Source: Bacteroidota bacterium
GTDB taxonomy: Bacteria; Bacteroidota; Ignavibacteria; Kapaibacteriales; Kapaibacteriaceae
NCBI GenBank assembly: GCA_041170435.1
Contig: JBEAYU010000030.1
Span: forward strand, 1,769 to 65,768
Length of the DNA: 64,000 nucleotides
Direction: 5' to 3'
This document shows positions 7,585-14,993 of the stretch, piece by piece (positions within the stretch are counted from its first letter, which is position 1; every line of letters begins with the position of its first letter). The position numbers were made by a program, and so were the translations under genes. The notes beneath the pieces are model-generated. The model was not told the origin of the DNA. It saw only the letters and a program-made list of their open reading frames with translations, and did no database searches.

Positions 7585-8205
7585 TTATGACGTTCCGAAG
7601 AGGCGATCACCGGCATCGCCCAAACCCGGAACAATGTAGCCAAGTGAGTTAAGTTCACGGTCTTTCGCGGCACAGAAGAGTGCCACGTCGGGATGCTCCG
7701 ACTCGATCGTGGCGATCCCCTCAGGAGAGGCGATCAGGCAGGCAGCCATCAGACGTTGATGAGGCATGGGGCGAAGCATCGAAAATGTGGCGCTCATGCT
7801 CCCGCCAGTGGCCAACATTGGGTCGAGCACAATGAACGTTGTCGCCGGATCCGAGGGAGGCAGGTTTCTGTAGTACTCGTGCGGTTCGAGTGTCTCCTCG
7901 TTACGCTTCAGGCCGATGAAGCCCACCGATGCCTGCGGACACAACGCGATGAATGGATCAAGGATCCCCATGCCAGCGCGCAAGATGGGCACCAACACGA
8001 CGTGTCCGTCGATGACGTTGCAGGAGGTCGTCTCCAGAGGTGTGGCAACGTCGATCGTCCGCGCAGGTAGCGCATTCAGTGTTGCCGATGCCAGGTGCAA
8101 TCCGATTCTATGAACGGCCGTGCGAAAGACATCGATGGGAGCGTCCTTTGCTCGAATCGTTGCCAAGTCTGTGGACAGGGCCGTACCAGAGAGGATGACG
8201 GCCAT
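7585..8205 (-). CDS. upp: Uracil phosphoribosyltransferase
   Basis: VPILRAGMG, RNEETLEP, LDPMLATGGS (PRPP loop), YIVPGLGDAGDRLFGT. Confidence 0.97.
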   Translation of the reverse strand: MAVILSGTALSTDLATIRAKDAPIDVFRTAVHRIGLHLASATLNALPARTIDVATPLETTSCNVIDGHVVLVPILRAGMGILDPFIALCPQASVGFIGLKRNEETLEPHEYYRNLPPSDPATTFIVLDPMLATGGSMSATFSMLRPMPHQRLMAACLIASPEGIATIESEHPDVALFCAAKDRELNSLGYIVPGLGDAGDRLFGTS

Positions 8206-8207
8206 GA

Positions 8208-9815
8208 TCAGAAGTTCGGATAGAACAGGATCGTCAGACGCGGGATCGAATAGATCGTTGTGATATCGGCCAGATCCTGAGAATAGCGGTTCGTGGCCTG
8301 ATCGTAGTAGACAAGCGTTCCGGAATCGGGCGCAAGCGGATCGGGCTGGGTCATGGATTGGTTATACCACGGTTTACTCTTGTCCTCTTCGTCGACAAAC
8401 TCCGTACGTACGACCTGCTTGAGATCCTGACCGAGCATGAAGTTGAATCGAACGTTAAACATGGGGTAGAACGTCCCGAACGAGGTCGGAATGGCCACTC
8501 CCGCGCCGATACCCCCAACGATGCCGAGTTTGGAGATTGTCTGCACACCGTCGTCAGTGTAGGCATATGCCATTCCGATCTGAGGGATGAAGTTGACCTT
8601 GTTATAGGGATTGAGCGCATAGAGCATCGTGGCCTCTGCAATATGCGTAGTGATGATTGGCAAGTTATAGAGCCTTTGTTTGCTGTCGTTTCGGGTGTTG
8701 ACGTAGGTGGCCTCTAGCATTAGCCGATCAGAGGCCTGAAATGCCACGGTGCCTCCAAAACTCAGAATTGACGGATACGAGAATGATGCTGTGGAGTCAA
8801 GATCACTTCTCCACGTCGGCCCACTCGCGAGGTCACGTTTGTAAAGTTGCCGATAGATCCGGCGCTCGGTGATCGTGTTCGAGCCTGCGCTTATGCCAAT
8901 GCCGAACAGACGTGGCTTGACCAGGCGAGCCCAAGAGGCAGAGTCAACCTGGTAGTTCTCATAGGCAACATCGTAGTCAGAGTCGACGTCGTATGCATCC
9001 GGATCTGGAGCTGTTGGCTGTGCGATGGCTCCAAGCGTGATGAACATGAAGGTCATTGCCAGAGCAAAGAAGCGCCGTGCCGTGGACGTGGTGGTTTGAA
9101 GGACATCCGATAGTGTCATTCCGGTGATCTCCGAGAATTTTTCTGCAACCAGTTGTACGTAGGTCGGCTCATTGCGCTTGCCGCGATGGGGAACTGGTGT
9201 CATGTATGGTGAATCGGTTTCGAGCATGAATCGGTCACGTGGCACACGATGAAGTACCTCATGTAGTGTGAAGCGCGCAAAGGTAATGTTGCCGGTGAAC
9301 GAGACGTGGAAACCGAGCTCAATGGCCCGATCAAGTACCTCCACGCTGCTCGAAAAACAATGCAAAACACCGCGGAGCGTACCGTCCTGCTCCTCCTCGA
9401 GGATCTGGAGAACGTCCTCGTCGGCATCCCGATTGTGGACGATCACCGGCAGCGACCGCGACTTTGCGATCTTCAACTGCTCACGAAAGTACGACTTCTG
9501 GGTCTCAGGAGCGCAGAAGTCGTAGTAGTAGTCGAGGCCGATCTCACCAATGGCGACGACCTTGTCTTCATGACTCTGCTGCATGACCAGGTCGAGGTCG
9601 TGATGATCGACCTCGCCGGCATGATGGGGGTGGATACCAACACCACGAAACAGGCGCGAGTGTGCGTCGACTACGCTTTTGAGATGTGGACGAGTTGACG
9701 GTTTGATGTCGGGAACAATGATCGTCTCAACCCCGGCTGCGAATGCCCGTTCAAGCATCTGATCTCGGTCGCCCTCAAACATCTCGGTGTCGATGTGGGC
9801 ATGGGTGTCGATCAT
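8208..9815 (-). CDS. tatD: TatD-family nuclease fused in frame to an internal signal peptide and an outer-membrane beta-barrel-like domain
   Basis: Residues 1-~250: MIDTHAH, GIHPH, AIGEIGLDY, IVHNRDA, GVLHCFS, LETDSPY, RGKRNEP. Residues 247-265: RR + hydrophobic core + AIA-Q. Residues 266-535: amphipathic beta-strands ending in Phe. Confidence 0.85.
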   Translation of the reverse strand: MIDTHAHIDTEMFEGDRDQMLERAFAAGVETIIVPDIKPSTRPHLKSVVDAHSRLFRGVGIHPHHAGEVDHHDLDLVMQQSHEDKVVAIGEIGLDYYYDFCAPETQKSYFREQLKIAKSRSLPVIVHNRDADEDVLQILEEEQDGTLRGVLHCFSSSVEVLDRAIELGFHVSFTGNITFARFTLHEVLHRVPRDRFMLETDSPYMTPVPHRGKRNEPTYVQLVAEKFSEITGMTLSDVLQTTTSTARRFFALAMTFMFITLGAIAQPTAPDPDAYDVDSDYDVAYENYQVDSASWARLVKPRLFGIGISAGSNTITERRIYRQLYKRDLASGPTWRSDLDSTASFSYPSILSFGGTVAFQASDRLMLEATYVNTRNDSKQRLYNLPIITTHIAEATMLYALNPYNKVNFIPQIGMAYAYTDDGVQTISKLGIVGGIGAGVAIPTSFGTFYPMFNVRFNFMLGQDLKQVVRTEFVDEEDKSKPWYNQSMTQPDPLAPDSGTLVYYDQATNRYSQDLADITTIYSIPRLTILFYPNF

Positions 9816-9818
9816 CGA

Positions 9819-10294
9819 TCAGGCGCCGAGTTCGGCGAGCTTCGCGCTGACGGCTTCGACGTGTCCGCTGACCTTGACCTTTTCGAAGGCAGCAGCGATC
9901 TTGCCCGTGGGGTTGATGATGTACGTGGTTCGCTCCACACCCATGTACGTGCGGCCATACATGGATTTCTGCTTCCATGTATCATAGGCTTCGCAGATCG
10001 CATGATCCTCATCCGACACAAGGGTGAAGTTGAGGTCATACTTGGCCTTGAACCGGTCATGTGACGCTGGACTGTCGGGGCTTACGCCCACAACCGTGAC
10101 TCCGCGCTTGGTAAGGTCCGACATCGCATCACGAAAGTCACAGGCCTCGGCCGTGCAGCCCGACGTGTCGTCCTTGGGATAGAAGTACAACACCACCCAC
10201 GATCCCTTGTGAGATGCCAGCGAGAATGCTCCCCCTGAGTCGGTTTTTGCCTTGATCGCCGGTGCCTTGGTTCCATTCTGAAGTGCCATATTGA

Positions 10295-10298
<4 letters not shown>
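9819..10298 (-). CDS. bcp: Thioredoxin-dependent thiol peroxidase (BCP/PrxQ)
   Basis: VVLYFYPKDDTSGCTAEACDFRD, GVSPD, ERTTYII. Confidence 0.95.
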
Positions 10299-12025
<1,727 letters not shown>

Positions 12026-12062
12026 GTGGTGTTGATACGAAAAACTCAATCTGCTAAAACCA

Positions 12063-14993
12063 ATGGCCATGCCCAAACCTCGAGCCCGAAACGTTGTCCA
12101 CCTCCTCATTGTAGGGCTCTTTCTTGCCGGATGGCAAGGACTGTACTCGCAGGGTGTTCGCTACGAAACGGTCACCGTTGACGGGTTTCCTTTGGAGATC
12201 GTGTCTGGAAAAGTTCACGTGCGAATGGTCTCCAAGAGGACAGTCGAGGAGGTCAACGCCATTCTGCCGGAAGGTTTTCGGGTTGACCATCATTTCCTCC
12301 CACCGGAGAGAACTGAGCACTTTTTGTCGCAAAGCGTGACTCGTCCACCCTCGGAGCCTGCCCGATCCCGTGCTCTTCACGTACAGCGTTCGGCTTTGCG
12401 CGATGCCGAGGACCGTCTAACGCGCACCTTCACGATCGCCTTCGAGGGGAGGCCGTCGGTGTCGGCTGCCATCGCCTATCTCTTGAAGACCCTCCCCGGC
12501 GAGGTCGAGATCGCCGAACCGTGGACGATCGACCGTATTCAAGGTCAATCAAATGACTCACTCAGGCCACTGCAAGACTACCTGCAAACCATCGGATTCG
12601 ATCAGGCATGGGAAGTTTTCAAGGGGGCTGATACGATTATCATTGGCATCAGCGATGACTGGATCGATCAGCGGCACGAGGACCTGAGTGGGAACATTGC
12701 GGCGAATGCCGGCGAGATTCCCGGAAACGGAAGGGACGACGATGCAAATGGCTATGTGGATGACTACCGAGGTCACTGTTTCGCGTGGCCGGAACGTGCC
12801 AACAACACAACCTTTAGCGGAAGCTTCAATCACGGTACGCGAGTTGCGGGACTTGCCGCGGCATCAACGAACAACGGCAAGGGCATCGCCTCGGCGGGGA
12901 TGTCTTCGCGATTCTTCCCGATGGCAGTGGCGGGCCTCCAGGGTGGTGGGATCATGTACGGATATCAGTCGCTCATCTATGCCGCAGAACGTGGTTTTGA
13001 TGTGGTGAATACCTCGTGGGGAACTGTCAAACCTGCCTCGGCAATCGACCAGTCGGTAATCGATTTCTGTCTGGCAAAGAATGTACTTGTGGTCGCATCC
13101 GGGGGCAATCACGGCGAGGGCTTAGGAGGCACTGCCTTCAACCGGCGGAACTACCCGTCGGCCTATGATGGCGTGCTTGGAGTCGGAGAGACCACGCCAG
13201 ACGACTTCGTTGTTGGGTCAAGCGGTCTTGGTGGCAACGCCGATCTGATGGCTCCGGGCAATCTGGCATTGACGACCGAGATGGAGGTGAGTGGCGGCAA
13301 TGAGTTTCGATCCGAATACACCTCAAGCGGCACCACCGGCACATCCTTTGCCTCTCCGATCGTAGCAGGGGCTGCGGCTGTTGTGCGTGCTCGATGGCCG
13401 CAGTTGACGGCGCGTCAGGTTGCTGCACACTTGCGCGCTACGGCAGTTGACATCTCGTCGTTGAACCCGTCGTTCATGGACGTGGTGGCTCCCAGACTGA
13501 ACCTTTTCAAGGCGGTGACCGAGGAGCCCCTTTCCCGACCTTCGATGCGCATCTCCGCTGTTCGCCAGAGCGTGGCCGGGAATGGCTCGACGAGCCGATT
13601 TCGCGTTGGTGACACGCTGTTGCTGCAGTTCGAGGTTACCAATGACCTTGGCCCAGCCACGGCTGAGCTCGAGCCGCGCATCGTCTCTGCCAACGGCTGG
13701 GCACTGCGAGGTCTACGTGAGCGTGATGCTCTTGGGCAGATCGCCACGGGCGCATCGGTGAGCTCGAAGCCCTTTCCTTTCGTGATCGATGCCATTGGCT
13801 CGTCAGCGTGTGTTGTGAGGGTCGAGATCCTTGGTGACACCTATCAGGATCATGCATTCCATTACATCAATCTGCCGAGTGCGATCACGCGCTTTGAGAA
13901 CGAGGCTATCATGTACTCGATGTCTGACGATGGTATGGTTGGCTACACGTCGATCGACGCGACGCGGCAAGGGGCGGGTTTTGCCCGCAAGCCTGCAACG
14001 CAGCTATTGTCACCCAGTGGACTGTTTGTGGTCGACGATGGAGCTCGCAGCGTTACCGGATATAAGAACGATCCACCTCTTGCATCGGACTTCGTGGCCA
14101 CCAAGCCCTTTGGAATGCAGCCACAGCCCAACACGTGTCGGATGATCGATTCGGCATCGTCGGCTCCTCTTGATGTAGAGGTCACGCAGACGTGCCTATT
14201 GCCGCGCCCCAACCTGCCAGCCACGATCTGGAACGTCACCATCACTCCACGTTCAGCAACCCTTCCGAGCGTTGCCGCGGGGTATGTTCTCGATTGGGAT
14301 GTTAGTCCCGGGGGACGCAACGACATCGTGACACCCGACCAGTTGGCGATACCCTCAGGCATGCAGGATCTGAATGTGGCAGCACAGCGCGTCACGTTGT
14401 GGGAGGGTGTGAGTGCTGGTGCGGTAAGCCACATCTGCGTGGCCGTGGTCAGCAACGACCCCGATGACCGCGCACAGTCAGCTGGGCTACCGCTGGCGTC
14501 GATCATCGACGATAATGACGGATTCACGCACCGGGATCGCGTGGCCTTGCTGTCTGCCGGCATATCACGCACCCCGACATTCGATCGAACTGATGTGTTC
14601 GTCTTGGCCGGAATGCGCCGCACGAAGCCCCTTGAGATCGGTCAATCATGGACGTTCTCGGTCATCATCACCGTAGGCGCCGATTCGGCAAGTGCTCAGG
14701 CTCTTATGCGGGAGGTCATTCCGACCGTTTCCGTTGCGGGCGAACGTGAATCAGCATCAGCTTTACTGCAGGTTGATCCCAATCCTGTTACGGACATTGC
14801 CACAGTTCGTGGCACGGTCGGCCCGTGTCGGTGTAGCGTGATCGACATGCTAGGTCGAGTTCGGATGTCATGGCAACACGCCGGCGTCGGCGATATTGCG
14901 TTCGATGCTTCGCAGCTGGAGAAGGGGGCCTACACGCTCCGCATCGATGATGAGATCACCGGACCTGTTCAATTCTTGAGATTCATTCGATGA
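12063..14993 (+). CDS. S8 (subtilisin-like) serine peptidase with T9SS C-terminal domain
   Basis: Triad motifs IGISD, HGTRVAG, GTSFASP; oxyanion ASGGN; NGRDDDANGYVDD loop; CTD DPNPVT..LEKGAYTLRI..LRFIR. Confidence 0.9.
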   Translation: MAMPKPRARNVVHLLIVGLFLAGWQGLYSQGVRYETVTVDGFPLEIVSGKVHVRMVSKRTVEEVNAILPEGFRVDHHFLPPERTEHFLSQSVTRPPSEPARSRALHVQRSALRDAEDRLTRTFTIAFEGRPSVSAAIAYLLKTLPGEVEIAEPWTIDRIQGQSNDSLRPLQDYLQTIGFDQAWEVFKGADTIIIGISDDWIDQRHEDLSGNIAANAGEIPGNGRDDDANGYVDDYRGHCFAWPERANNTTFSGSFNHGTRVAGLAAASTNNGKGIASAGMSSRFFPMAVAGLQGGGIMYGYQSLIYAAERGFDVVNTSWGTVKPASAIDQSVIDFCLAKNVLVVASGGNHGEGLGGTAFNRRNYPSAYDGVLGVGETTPDDFVVGSSGLGGNADLMAPGNLALTTEMEVSGGNEFRSEYTSSGTTGTSFASPIVAGAAAVVRARWPQLTARQVAAHLRATAVDISSLNPSFMDVVAPRLNLFKAVTEEPLSRPSMRISAVRQSVAGNGSTSRFRVGDTLLLQFEVTNDLGPATAELEPRIVSANGWALRGLRERDALGQIATGASVSSKPFPFVIDAIGSSACVVRVEILGDTYQDHAFHYINLPSAITRFENEAIMYSMSDDGMVGYTSIDATRQGAGFARKPATQLLSPSGLFVVDDGARSVTGYKNDPPLASDFVATKPFGMQPQPNTCRMIDSASSAPLDVEVTQTCLLPRPNLPATIWNVTITPRSATLPSVAAGYVLDWDVSPGGRNDIVTPDQLAIPSGMQDLNVAAQRVTLWEGVSAGAVSHICVAVVSNDPDDRAQSAGLPLASIIDDNDGFTHRDRVALLSAGISRTPTFDRTDVFVLAGMRRTKPLEIGQSWTFSVIITVGADSASAQALMREVIPTVSVAGERESASALLQVDPNPVTDIATVRGTVGPCRCSVIDMLGRVRMSWQHAGVGDIAFDASQLEKGAYTLRIDDEITGPVQFLRFIR

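Follow-up and report, generated by a model that had tools for sequence, protein, structure and literature searches.

Can a single bacterial reading frame encode both a cytoplasmic nuclease and an outer-membrane protein, and if so, how would the two parts reach their compartments? The question is raised by one open reading frame in the window, i.e., the whole 64,000-nucleotide stretch of DNA that we analysed, which comes from a Bacteroidota bacterium of the order Kapaibacteriales (the genome is a draft of 93 contigs). An earlier note on this DNA described a TatD nuclease that continues past its usual end into an export signal and an outer-membrane beta-barrel. The coordinates given for it were right: Met233 lies at nt 9119-9117 and R247-Q266 at nt 9077-9018, after which 270 aa follow, ending in ILFYPNF. 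The 535-aa frame on the minus strand (8208-9815) has no internal stops. Its parts and its neighbours are listed below.

8208-9815, minus strand: the whole open reading frame, 535 aa with the stop TGA at 8208-8210, comprising TatD, a putative internal signal and a predicted outer-membrane barrel
9066-9815, minus strand: TatD/YcfH-type metal-dependent hydrolase domain, residues 1-250 (from PF01026, TIGR00010 and the full-length model)
9066-9119, minus strand: residues 233-250, the last TatD helix (235-249 in the model), which would also be the charged n-region (R247, R248)
9117-9119, minus strand: ATG of Met233, a candidate internal start that opens residues 233-250 (from Met counts at fused junctions)
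9021-9065, minus strand: residues 251-265, ALAMTFMFITLGAIA, the putative hydrophobic core and c-region (from the sequence)
between nt 9021 and 9020, minus strand: predicted signal peptidase I (SPase I) cut after A265 (from sequence and conservation)
8910-9020, minus strand: residues 266-302, N-terminal tail of the putative mature barrel protein (from sequence and model)
8211-8909, minus strand: residues 303-535, predicted outer-membrane beta-barrel of 8 strands, in which the extracellular loops L1 and L4 are long
8211-8237, minus strand: C-terminal LTILFYPNF, the last strand with its terminal aromatic residue, a candidate BAM beta-signal
9819-10298, minus strand: upstream neighbour, an AhpC/TSA (Bcp-type) peroxiredoxin whose stop is 1 nt ahead of the TatD ATG
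7585-8205, minus strand: downstream neighbour, uracil phosphoribosyltransferase, with its ATG 2 nt past the stop of the fusion
10295-12109, minus strand: dnaX (DNA polymerase III tau/gamma), the first gene of the same closely packed string

The TatD domain is complete, as had been claimed from the letters alone. Pfam PF01026 (TatD_DNase) covers residues 2-250 and nearly the whole profile (1-252 of 253; E 2.2e-76, 257.1 bits against a cut-off of 27), and NCBIfam TIGR00010, whose cut-off is 206, reaches 245.7 bits. Models of E. coli equivalogs stay below their cut-offs (178 vs 438, 153 vs 395 and 141 vs 481). In the full-length AF2 model, residues 1-250 form an alpha/beta barrel with its last helix at 235-249. 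The protein starts with MIDTHAHIDTEMFEGD, without a hydrophobic segment or signal. H5, H7, E91, H127, H152 and D201, which we take to be the metal-binding His-x-His, Glu, His, His and Asp of TatD structures, are unchanged in 18 of 18 fused sequences. The TatD/YcfH hydrolase is complete and apparently active.

The frame indeed runs on where TatD normally stops, since unfused TatDs end 0-14 residues past the equivalent of Phe250 (85 distinct tails). It had also been claimed that TatD could only be made as the fusion. This did not hold for the genome as a whole: a second, shorter TatD-family gene (218 aa) is present, and the cell is therefore not restricted to the fused form. In databases, the fused proteins are annotated merely as 'TatD family hydrolase'.

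Behind the TatD domain we observed the elements of a signal peptide, namely R247-R248, a 15-residue core and A263-I-A265|Q266. The reading of this junction as Sec/SPase I-like with Gln at +1 is borne out by its conservation. A (-3,-1)|Gln site is found in 76 of 79 distinct junctions, with Ala at -1 in 71 of them and Ser in 5; the last K/R precedes the cleavage site by a median of 17 residues, a spacing like that of signal peptides; and A265, Q266 and P267 are unchanged in all 18 sequences. The proposal that the last TatD helix doubles as the signal has to be narrowed, however: helix 235-249 gives the charged n-region, but the core (251-265) is additional sequence absent from unfused TatDs. Gln at +1 had been ascribed to most other exported proteins in the window. 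Genome-wide, it is enriched 2.8-fold at this position and occurs in 228 of 649 signal-like ORFs, as counted with a crude home-made predictor.

Two bona fide OMP_b-brl proteins of the genome have signals ending in A|Q. Additionally, the genome encodes a glutaminyl cyclase, two S26 signal peptidases and four Omp85 proteins (BamA-like). For Ignavibacterium album, a high Q-rule value of 77% is given in PMC5837995.

Other devices were considered and rejected. A Tat signal does not fit, as the RR of the window is not conserved and relatives carry KR, RS, RT, KN, KK, RQ or AS at the same positions. Autotransporter or type V secretion was discarded too: there is no N-terminal passenger signal, and the barrel is one of 8 strands where 12 or more would be expected. 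Nor did we find signs of a programmed frameshift that would end TatD, the first stop in the other two frames lying 5-108 codons past Phe250 with no conserved pattern across 30 genomes. A literature search returned nothing on a TatD with an internal signal peptide, and nothing, by title or abstract, on a fusion of TatD to an outer-membrane beta-barrel.

We consider it likely that this is a conserved two-compartment gene, which gives a Sec-exported, SPase I-cut barrel and a TatD left on the cytoplasmic side. The whole chain would be translated from the first ATG, with TatD folding in the cytoplasm. Once emerged, the hydrophobic segment, which is preceded by basic residues and followed by an acidic stretch, would engage Sec in the N-in/C-out orientation. 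The barrel part would then be threaded to the periplasm and cut by signal peptidase I after Ala265; its new N-terminal Gln would be cyclised by the glutaminyl cyclase of the genome, and the barrel of about 270 aa would be inserted in the outer membrane by BAM. The remaining TatD of about 265 aa would stay attached to the inner face of the inner membrane, its C-terminal signal segment serving as the anchor, unless a signal-peptide or site-2 protease frees it later. There is probably a second route as well: a start at the conserved in-frame Met (Met233) would yield an ordinary barrel precursor, the n-region of which is the end of TatD, and internal initiation of this kind would permit more barrel than TatD to be made.

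In this way two cell compartments probably draw proteins from one and the same reading frame. We infer two mature products from one ORF, the polyprotein logic being drawn from the sequence. In the boldest version, every TatD would be born with a tail that is at the same time the signal peptide for an outer-membrane protein, SPase I would act as a polyprotein processor, TatD would be tail-anchored and made 1:1 with the barrel, and the internal Met would add a barrel-only isoform. We put this version forward tentatively, with a little more doubt than belief.

Met233 had been named as an alternative in-frame start, and comparison gives this support. Of 79 fused junctions, 73 have an in-frame Met 3-20 residues ahead of the hydrophobic core, compared with 13 of 85 and 20 of 63 in two sets of unfused TatDs and 2 of 9 in TatD-radical-SAM fusions. 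Since Met is commoner at fused than at unfused TatD ends, internal initiation could plausibly give a second product. The candidate start codon is ATG in 28 of 30 genomes; the remaining two have GTG or TTG. Where Met is missing at -17 or -9, it is often found at -15, -12, -10 or -3; in 6 of the 79 junctions (P0036, P0037 and P0043 included) the whole range from -20 to -3 is without one. A FastTree phylogeny of 78 fused proteins divides them into two large clades, with Met at -17 and at -9, respectively, and shows 10 position-class changes. Part of the Met excess may be inheritance. The lineage is mostly without Shine-Dalgarno sites.

The same observations speak for a rival explanation, a nested in-frame gene, according to which the barrel is made mainly from the internal start at Met233 with an ordinary N-terminal signal, while the read-through chain is minor or degraded and TatD is effectively soluble. 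The excess of Met at fused junctions, its substitute positions and the predominance of ATG all favour it, and a start at the -9 Met yields a textbook n-region, M-T-T-x-T-A-K-K-L-F. However, the catalytic residues of TatD are conserved; TatD must therefore be translated, without a possible stop before the barrel, and with no stop possible there, the full-length chain arises whenever TatD is made. Moreover, P0036, P0037 and P0043 are without the Met, and the Met pattern is one of few independent origins. We regard a nested gene of this kind as unlikely.

Cleavage itself might also be questioned. The 15-17-residue hydrophobic segment could be an uncleaved anchor instead, that is, the permanent signal-anchor of a bitopic protein whose barrel stays covalently tied to TatD as an envelope-spanning tether. 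Consistent with such a tether, the segment is helical at 252-262 in the full-length AF2 model, and in the genus of the window the stretch between it and the first strand is about 37 residues long. In distant relatives, however, just about 10-20 residues link the cut site and the first strand, and for this reason an uncut protein could not span the periplasm. Furthermore, the invariant small-x-small|Gln motif would be purposeless if left uncut, and Gln at +1 is a hallmark of cut SPase I substrates in the lineage, as described in PMC5837995. We therefore hold a permanently tethered barrel to be very unlikely. As for the arrangement of the two domains, the full-length AF2 model (pTM 0.47) is not confident about their mutual orientation and is silent on contact.

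The prediction of an outer-membrane beta-barrel for the C-terminal part was upheld by the AF2 model, in which residues 303-535 form a closed barrel of 8 antiparallel strands. According to this model, the C-terminal part is an OmpA-like outer-membrane barrel. The preceding residues, 266-302, begin with Gln-Pro, are acidic and Tyr-rich and contain a predicted helix at 278-299; the acidic, D/E/Y-rich character of this tail was seen in all relatives examined. In the numbering of the domain, P260, R261 and P268 are invariant in the aligned relatives. The protein in the window ends in ...LFYPNF; among 27 aligned relatives, 25 have F or W at the C-terminus and the other two L or M. A few relatives have a short extra tail beyond the terminal aromatic residue, which is unusual for BAM substrates. 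That the domain is instead a soluble or inner-membrane-associated periplasmic barrel of the lipocalin/YceI kind, and not an outer-membrane protein, seems to us extremely improbable.

Profile searches gave few matches for the barrel. The barrel part of the window has none in Pfam or NCBIfam, and PF13505 (OMP_b-brl) matches 7 of 27 relatives, just one of them above the cut-off (30.5 vs 28.7 bits). Aligned with hhalign against two outer-membrane proteins of the same genome, the family profile gave no match (probability below 1%), and against PDB sequences it gave one chance match (E 0.52). A feature search of the ESM Atlas returned top clusters at 0.96 (18% PF13505; DUF3575; one unnamed), which we treat as leads, not evidence. 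The suggestion that the fusion couples a nuclease to an outer-membrane pore found no support: 8-stranded barrels of the OmpA-like kind are narrow, and cleavage would part the two halves.

With the C-terminal part alone as a query, we obtained matches in 37 of 41 related genomes, and in 36 of these 37 the barrel part lies in an uninterrupted frame of 454-646 aa. Long TatD proteins of this kind were what the earlier note had proposed to look for. The copy in G015 (219 aa) is cut off by the contig end, and in G021 an additional copy, split in two, lies where a contig begins. The single-sequence query gave no match in G019, G025, G031 and G040 of the 41 genomes; G025 was later matched with the profile. 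In a profile search of the phylum, 26 of 401 genomes matched, including 22 of 22 sampled members of the order Kapaibacteriales, 2 of 2 of another family and one marginal case. Genomes of the order and of the further family carry a single copy each, with frame lengths of 480-674 aa.

A locus search with full-length alignments returned mostly ordinary TatDs and four fused metagenome-assembled genomes (labelled Ignavibacteria, Ignavibacteriae, Candidatus Kapaibacterium and Bacteroidetes). Searching 1.84 billion representatives with the barrel gave 24 matches; of the 22 inspected, 21 were fused forms or pieces thereof, and no free-standing barrel gene was found among them. The 534-aa P0026 counts as a fused form by its length and the range of its match; P0047, a repeat protein of 2767 aa, is unrelated. 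An origin of the fusion from an adjacent outer-membrane protein gene was considered and rejected, the genes downstream of TatD being unrelated in two relatives with a plain TatD.

RNA-library data consisted of contigs from two metatranscriptome runs, each with about one tenth of the sampled words, and transcript starts are not readable from them. One of the contigs ends at 9124, 5 nt upstream of Met233; contig ends carry no meaning, and neither do the stretches of the gene without coverage. An assembly error, a recent stop loss or a decaying gene can practically be dismissed, as dozens of genomes, each assembled independently, show the same uninterrupted frame with identities of 27-93%, a 201-nt RNA-library contig spans 8924-9124 across the junction with one substitution (A251G) and no indels or stops, and both halves are evidently constrained. 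The fusion is real and old, and it is conserved across an order.

Bacterial cleavable signal peptides are viewed as N-terminal devices. If the two-compartment reading is true, the locus would be an order-wide natural case of a cleavable signal behind a folded 250-aa cytoplasmic enzyme, feeding a BAM substrate, and would offer a system in which to study how Sec is engaged late and internally, how signal peptidase gains access and what becomes of the anchor that is left over. One bacterial ORF would serve two compartments, with a consequence for annotation, where names are given after the first domain. The membrane would be the site of a TatD-type nuclease, and this may be relevant to the cellular role of the universal TatD family. 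Additionally, the overlap of the last TatD helix with the n-region, together with the conserved in-frame Met, would make the junction a clean case in which to test internal initiation and the dual use of coding sequence.

How does this protein compare with known systems? Its N-terminal 250 residues match the TatD/YcfH/YabD hydrolases (PF01026, TIGR00010) end to end, with the metal-binding His, Glu and Asp kept. Unlike ordinary TatDs with their short tails, it adds 285 residues, which would make up the export signal and the barrel. In sister families, a radical-SAM domain, presumably TIGR04038, follows this TatD orthologue from the same C-terminal point onwards. That domain is a cytoplasmic CxxxCxxC enzyme, and no hydrophobic segment lies at the joint.

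The OmpA transmembrane domain, the OprF N-domain, NspA, OmpW and PagL share 10-15% identity with the barrel of the window. In contrast to these 8-stranded barrels, its signal is internal, behind a 250-aa enzyme; only a translation start at Met233 would make it N-terminal.

The FbcH cytochrome b-c1 precursor of Bradyrhizobium japonicum reportedly gives two mature proteins from one ORF by means of an internal signal sequence (work of Thony-Meyer and colleagues, about 1991). Both would be bacterial single ORFs divided at an internal signal, which for the TatD-barrel protein is read from sequence. The FbcH products are both reported to be in or on the inner membrane and to belong to one complex, whereas TatD and the barrel would occupy two compartments and have no known functional tie.

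In the Bacillus subtilis anti-sigma factor RsiV, signal peptidase cuts behind an internal membrane segment, and a site-2 protease then cuts the segment, according to PMC5014341. The likeness lies in an N-terminal cytoplasmic domain with one membrane segment, cut just outside the membrane; RsiV differs in being lysozyme-regulated, in its signalling role and in that the released domain is not a membrane protein. Finally, in hepatitis C virus the core protein ends in the signal peptide of the downstream protein E1, signal peptidase separates the two, and core remains membrane-anchored by that peptide until signal-peptide peptidase releases it, as stated in PMC5402940. That system is a viral polyprotein of the eukaryotic ER, whereas the TatD-barrel protein would use bacterial Sec and SPase I to feed BAM.

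The protein considered here is encoded by a single frame:

8208-9815, minus strand: fusion ORF, 535 residues, no internal stops

The N-terminal half belongs to the TatD/YcfH family. Residues 2-250 match Pfam TatD_DNase over 252 of 253 model positions (E 2.2e-76), and the protein passes the NCBIfam YchF/TatD subfamily model (245.7 bits, cut-off 206). Since unfused TatD controls end 0-14 residues past the position of Phe250 (85 distinct tails), the fusion frame continues beyond the usual TatD end. The positions assigned in the earlier note proved correct (Met233 at nt 9119-9117, R247 to Q266 at nt 9077-9018), as did its description of the stretch after the junction: 270 residues terminating in ILFYPNF.

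The fusion is real and conserved, not an artefact. With the C-terminal part alone as query, we observed matches in 37 of 41 related genomes, and the long TatD frames that the earlier note proposed to look for in relatives are there: 36 of the 37 matches lie within an uninterrupted frame of 454-646 aa, and the copy in G015 (219 aa) is cut by a contig end. Among the 41, this single-sequence query hit nothing in G019 (97% complete and of the same genus), G025, G031 or G040. A profile of A2, our alignment of 27 C-terminal domains, matched 26 of 401 genomes sampled across the phylum, including every one of the 22 genomes sampled from the window's order (G025 now among them) and both from one other family in the class. 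Each genome of these two groups has one copy, whose frame is 480-674 aa long. A search of 5.8 billion proteins returned 44 relatives of 515-564 aa, every one with PF01026 and named at source only as TatD family hydrolase/deoxyribonuclease; they come from Candidatus Kapabacteria and Ignavibacteria MAGs, and one carries the label Bradyrhizobiaceae. Named fusion-bearing genome records are Ignavibacteria, Ignavibacteriae, Candidatus Kapaibacterium and 'Bacteroidetes bacterium' MAGs. Additionally, the junction is intact in a 201-nt contig from a freshwater metatranscriptome library, which spans 8924-9124 with no indels and one substitution, A251G, a residue present in many relatives. Besides an intact fusion, G021 has a second copy of the barrel part in two frames at a contig start (G021:C49:66-871), which may be a frameshifted duplicate or come from another strain binned with it.

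The C-terminal 269-270 residues match no family in Pfam or NCBIfam. Structure prediction nevertheless bears out the barrel suspected there: AlphaFold2 with A2 yielded a confident model (mean pLDDT 90.0, pTM 0.74) in which a helix at mature-part residues 13-34 precedes a closed beta-barrel.

Comparison of the barrel model with other proteins (score first, then the remaining values)
NspA: 17.5; 2.4; 147 / 155
OprF N-terminal barrel: 17.4; 2.0; 130 / 135
OmpA transmembrane domain: 17.1; 2.2; 132 / 137
OmpW: 17.1; 3.4; 162 / 183
PagL: 15.5; 2.2; 127 / 146

Soluble YceI-like barrels score just ~9. As read from the alignment, the pattern agrees with classical outer-membrane barrel topology: three short conserved connections (..Q-ASDR.., ..NPYNK.., ..IPTS-FG..) sit at the expected periplasmic turn positions, and all four large indel regions fall in alternate outward loops. 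Of 27 relatives, 25 end in Phe or Trp. Sequence models back the barrel identity more weakly than structure does; OMP_b-brl (Pfam PF13505) is matched by 7 of 27 relatives, one of them over the cut-off, and the window's copy is unmatched. The modelled half shares fold and topology with OmpA-like 8-stranded barrels; its own sequence is not assignable to a Pfam family. In four distant fused proteins (L127, L128, P0054, P0060) the chain runs 4-11 residues beyond the barrel's terminal aromatic, an uncommon arrangement for a BAM substrate. In nearly all relatives the predicted mature barrel opens with 10-60 residues that are strongly acidic and rich in Tyr (8910-9020, minus strand, in the window), with runs such as EEEYYDDDE, the sequence itself not being conserved; this stretch may fix which way the internal signal is oriented, or it may act in the periplasm.

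Between the halves, the proposed signal-type junction was borne out by the relatives. Across 18 aligned full-length proteins, F250, L252, A265, Q266 and P267 do not vary, and a small-x-small/Gln site (slash, predicted cut) occurs in 76 of 79 distinct junctions, with Ala (71) or Ser (5) at -1; Pro stands at +2 in 53 of the 79. The three junctions lacking it are those of P0051, L016 and L017, the last reading HPA/QQ. From the last Lys/Arg to the site there are 12-22 residues (median 17, 79 junctions), a span that fits a cleavable signal peptide and not a long membrane anchor. Passages of PMC5837995 describe a 'Q-rule', by which Gln stands right behind the cut in Bacteroidota signal peptidase I substrates, and give a Q-value of 77% for Ignavibacterium album. 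In the window's genome, by a crude, home-made signal-peptide heuristic, a (-3,-1) site followed by Gln is present in 228 of 649 signal-like ORFs, Gln at +1 being 2.8-fold enriched (11.1% vs 4.0%). The signals of two bona fide OMP_b-brl proteins there end in ..TQA/QV and ..SYA/QD, and the genome encodes a glutaminyl cyclase (PF05096, E 3.3e-94), two S26 signal peptidases and four Omp85/BamA-family proteins. A conserved cleavage-type motif, chiefly Gln at +1, makes sense only if the site is cut. Moreover, just ~10-20 residues separate the site from the first strand in many relatives, so that an uncut chain would be unable to reach the outer membrane.

According to the earlier note, TatD's last helix doubles as the signal peptide. 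In the full-length model (pTM 0.47, no defined TatD-barrel contact) this helix spans 235-249, and a separate low-confidence helix covers 252-262. Thus, the last helix would serve as the signal's n-region but not as its hydrophobic core, which lies outside it.

No free-standing barrel gene emerged from the 22 inspected of 24 HMMER matches in 1.84 billion representative proteins: 21 proved to be fusions 465-543 aa long or pieces of such fusions. By length and match range, P0026 is a 534-aa fused form. Some fragments start within TatD, and the rest are C-terminal pieces or start at or just past the junction; those starting at or after it have no signal peptide of their own, as is typical of contig ends. 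The 2767-aa P0047 is unrelated; a Gly-rich stretch (query residues 151-176) matched it in 18 separate places, probably reflecting a compositional repeat rather than homology. The sole A2-profile match outside the class was marginal (L129, G293:C12, E 3.4e-4), a free-standing OmpA-like protein of 416 aa. It combines its own signal peptide (..GYS/QS) with an OmpA-like barrel, a stretch resembling a coiled coil and a C-terminal domain, and may be a distant cousin of the fused barrel.

A barrel-only product might also arise from an internal start. With junctions aligned on TatD's conserved Asn-Glu-Pro motif and positions counted back from Phe250, Met occurs at -20 to -3 in 73 of 79 fused junctions and is absent in six. 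Its position is -17 in 49 junctions, Met233 being the window's example, -9 in 18, and -15, -12, -10 or -3 in smaller groups; these counts are inflated by kinship, because the tree holds two main clades. An in-frame ATG falls in this range in 28 of 30 genomes with DNA, and the other two have GTG (-5) or TTG (-20) instead. Among controls, Met is found there in 13 of 85 distinct unfused tails, 20 of 63 unfused TatDs from diverse phyla and 2 of 9 TatD-radical-SAM fusions; four of the five unfused tails with Met at -9 resemble truncated fused forms. On a FastTree tree of 78 fused proteins, the Met position class changes 10 times and the presence of any Met just 3 times, lineages losing one Met usually retaining another close by. 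The pattern appears to favour selection for an in-frame start codon.

The surroundings of the fusion and a further TatD-family gene are as follows:

7585-12109, minus strand: gene string of dnaX, AhpC/TSA (Bcp-type) peroxiredoxin, the fusion and uracil phosphoribosyltransferase (upp)
L014:1013-1669 (contig C11 of the window's genome, G000), plus strand: second, shorter TatD-family gene, 218 aa (PF01026 E 7.3e-38, profile 49-253)

The fusion lies just 1-2 nt from its neighbours, with gaps or overlaps of 1-4 nt in the whole string, and this tight arrangement marks the fused copy as the housekeeping TatD. E. coli TatD is linked to the repair of peroxide-induced DNA damage; the adjacent peroxiredoxin may or may not be meaningful. 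The end of the 218-aa gene overlaps the next ORF. The TatD orthologue is unfused in G054 and G100, from sister families of the class. In G069, G044 and G049 (L035, L037, L039) a CxxxCxxC radical-SAM domain follows it from the same point, and there are nine further such fusions (L053, L057, L074, L085, L097, L103, L110, L114, L115). They occur in sister families and other phyla, and the partner (~200 aa) is attached through a short GIG linker that contains no hydrophobic segment. Fusions seem to arise repeatedly at the C-terminus of TatD.

The analysis shows the architecture, how widely it is conserved, the fold and the motif statistics; the route from gene to products is inferred. On the best reading, the fusion is a gene serving two compartments, with signal peptidase I processing its product. 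The full chain would be translated from the first ATG, since no stop codon ends the TatD part, and TatD would fold in the cytoplasm. The hydrophobic segment, with Arg/Lys before it and the acidic Asp/Glu/Tyr-rich stretch after it, would insert through Sec N-in/C-out, so that the barrel part crosses. Signal peptidase I would cut after Ala265, Gln266 would be cyclised and BAM would insert the barrel into the outer membrane. Residues 251-265 would stay on TatD and anchor its tail, unless they are taken off by a site-2 protease or a signal-peptide protease, and initiation at Met233 would supply an additional barrel-only precursor. We consider cleavage into two products probable; given cleavage, the chances that the internal start is also used are about even. 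The suggestion that a nuclease is coupled to a pore finds no support, because the predicted 8-stranded fold is narrow and cleavage would part the halves.

Viral polyproteins follow a similar processing logic, as reportedly does the FbcH cytochrome b-c1 precursor. We found no description of the TatD-barrel fusion in open-access full texts or bioRxiv. In RsiV (PMC5014341), signal peptidase cuts first and RasP second, which by analogy would parallel the last two proposed steps. The hepatitis C virus (HCV) core protein (PMC5402940) retains the E1 signal peptide until signal-peptide peptidase acts, a possible counterpart of the proposed TatD tail anchor. The proposed processing of the fusion would be a fresh variant on a known processing type.
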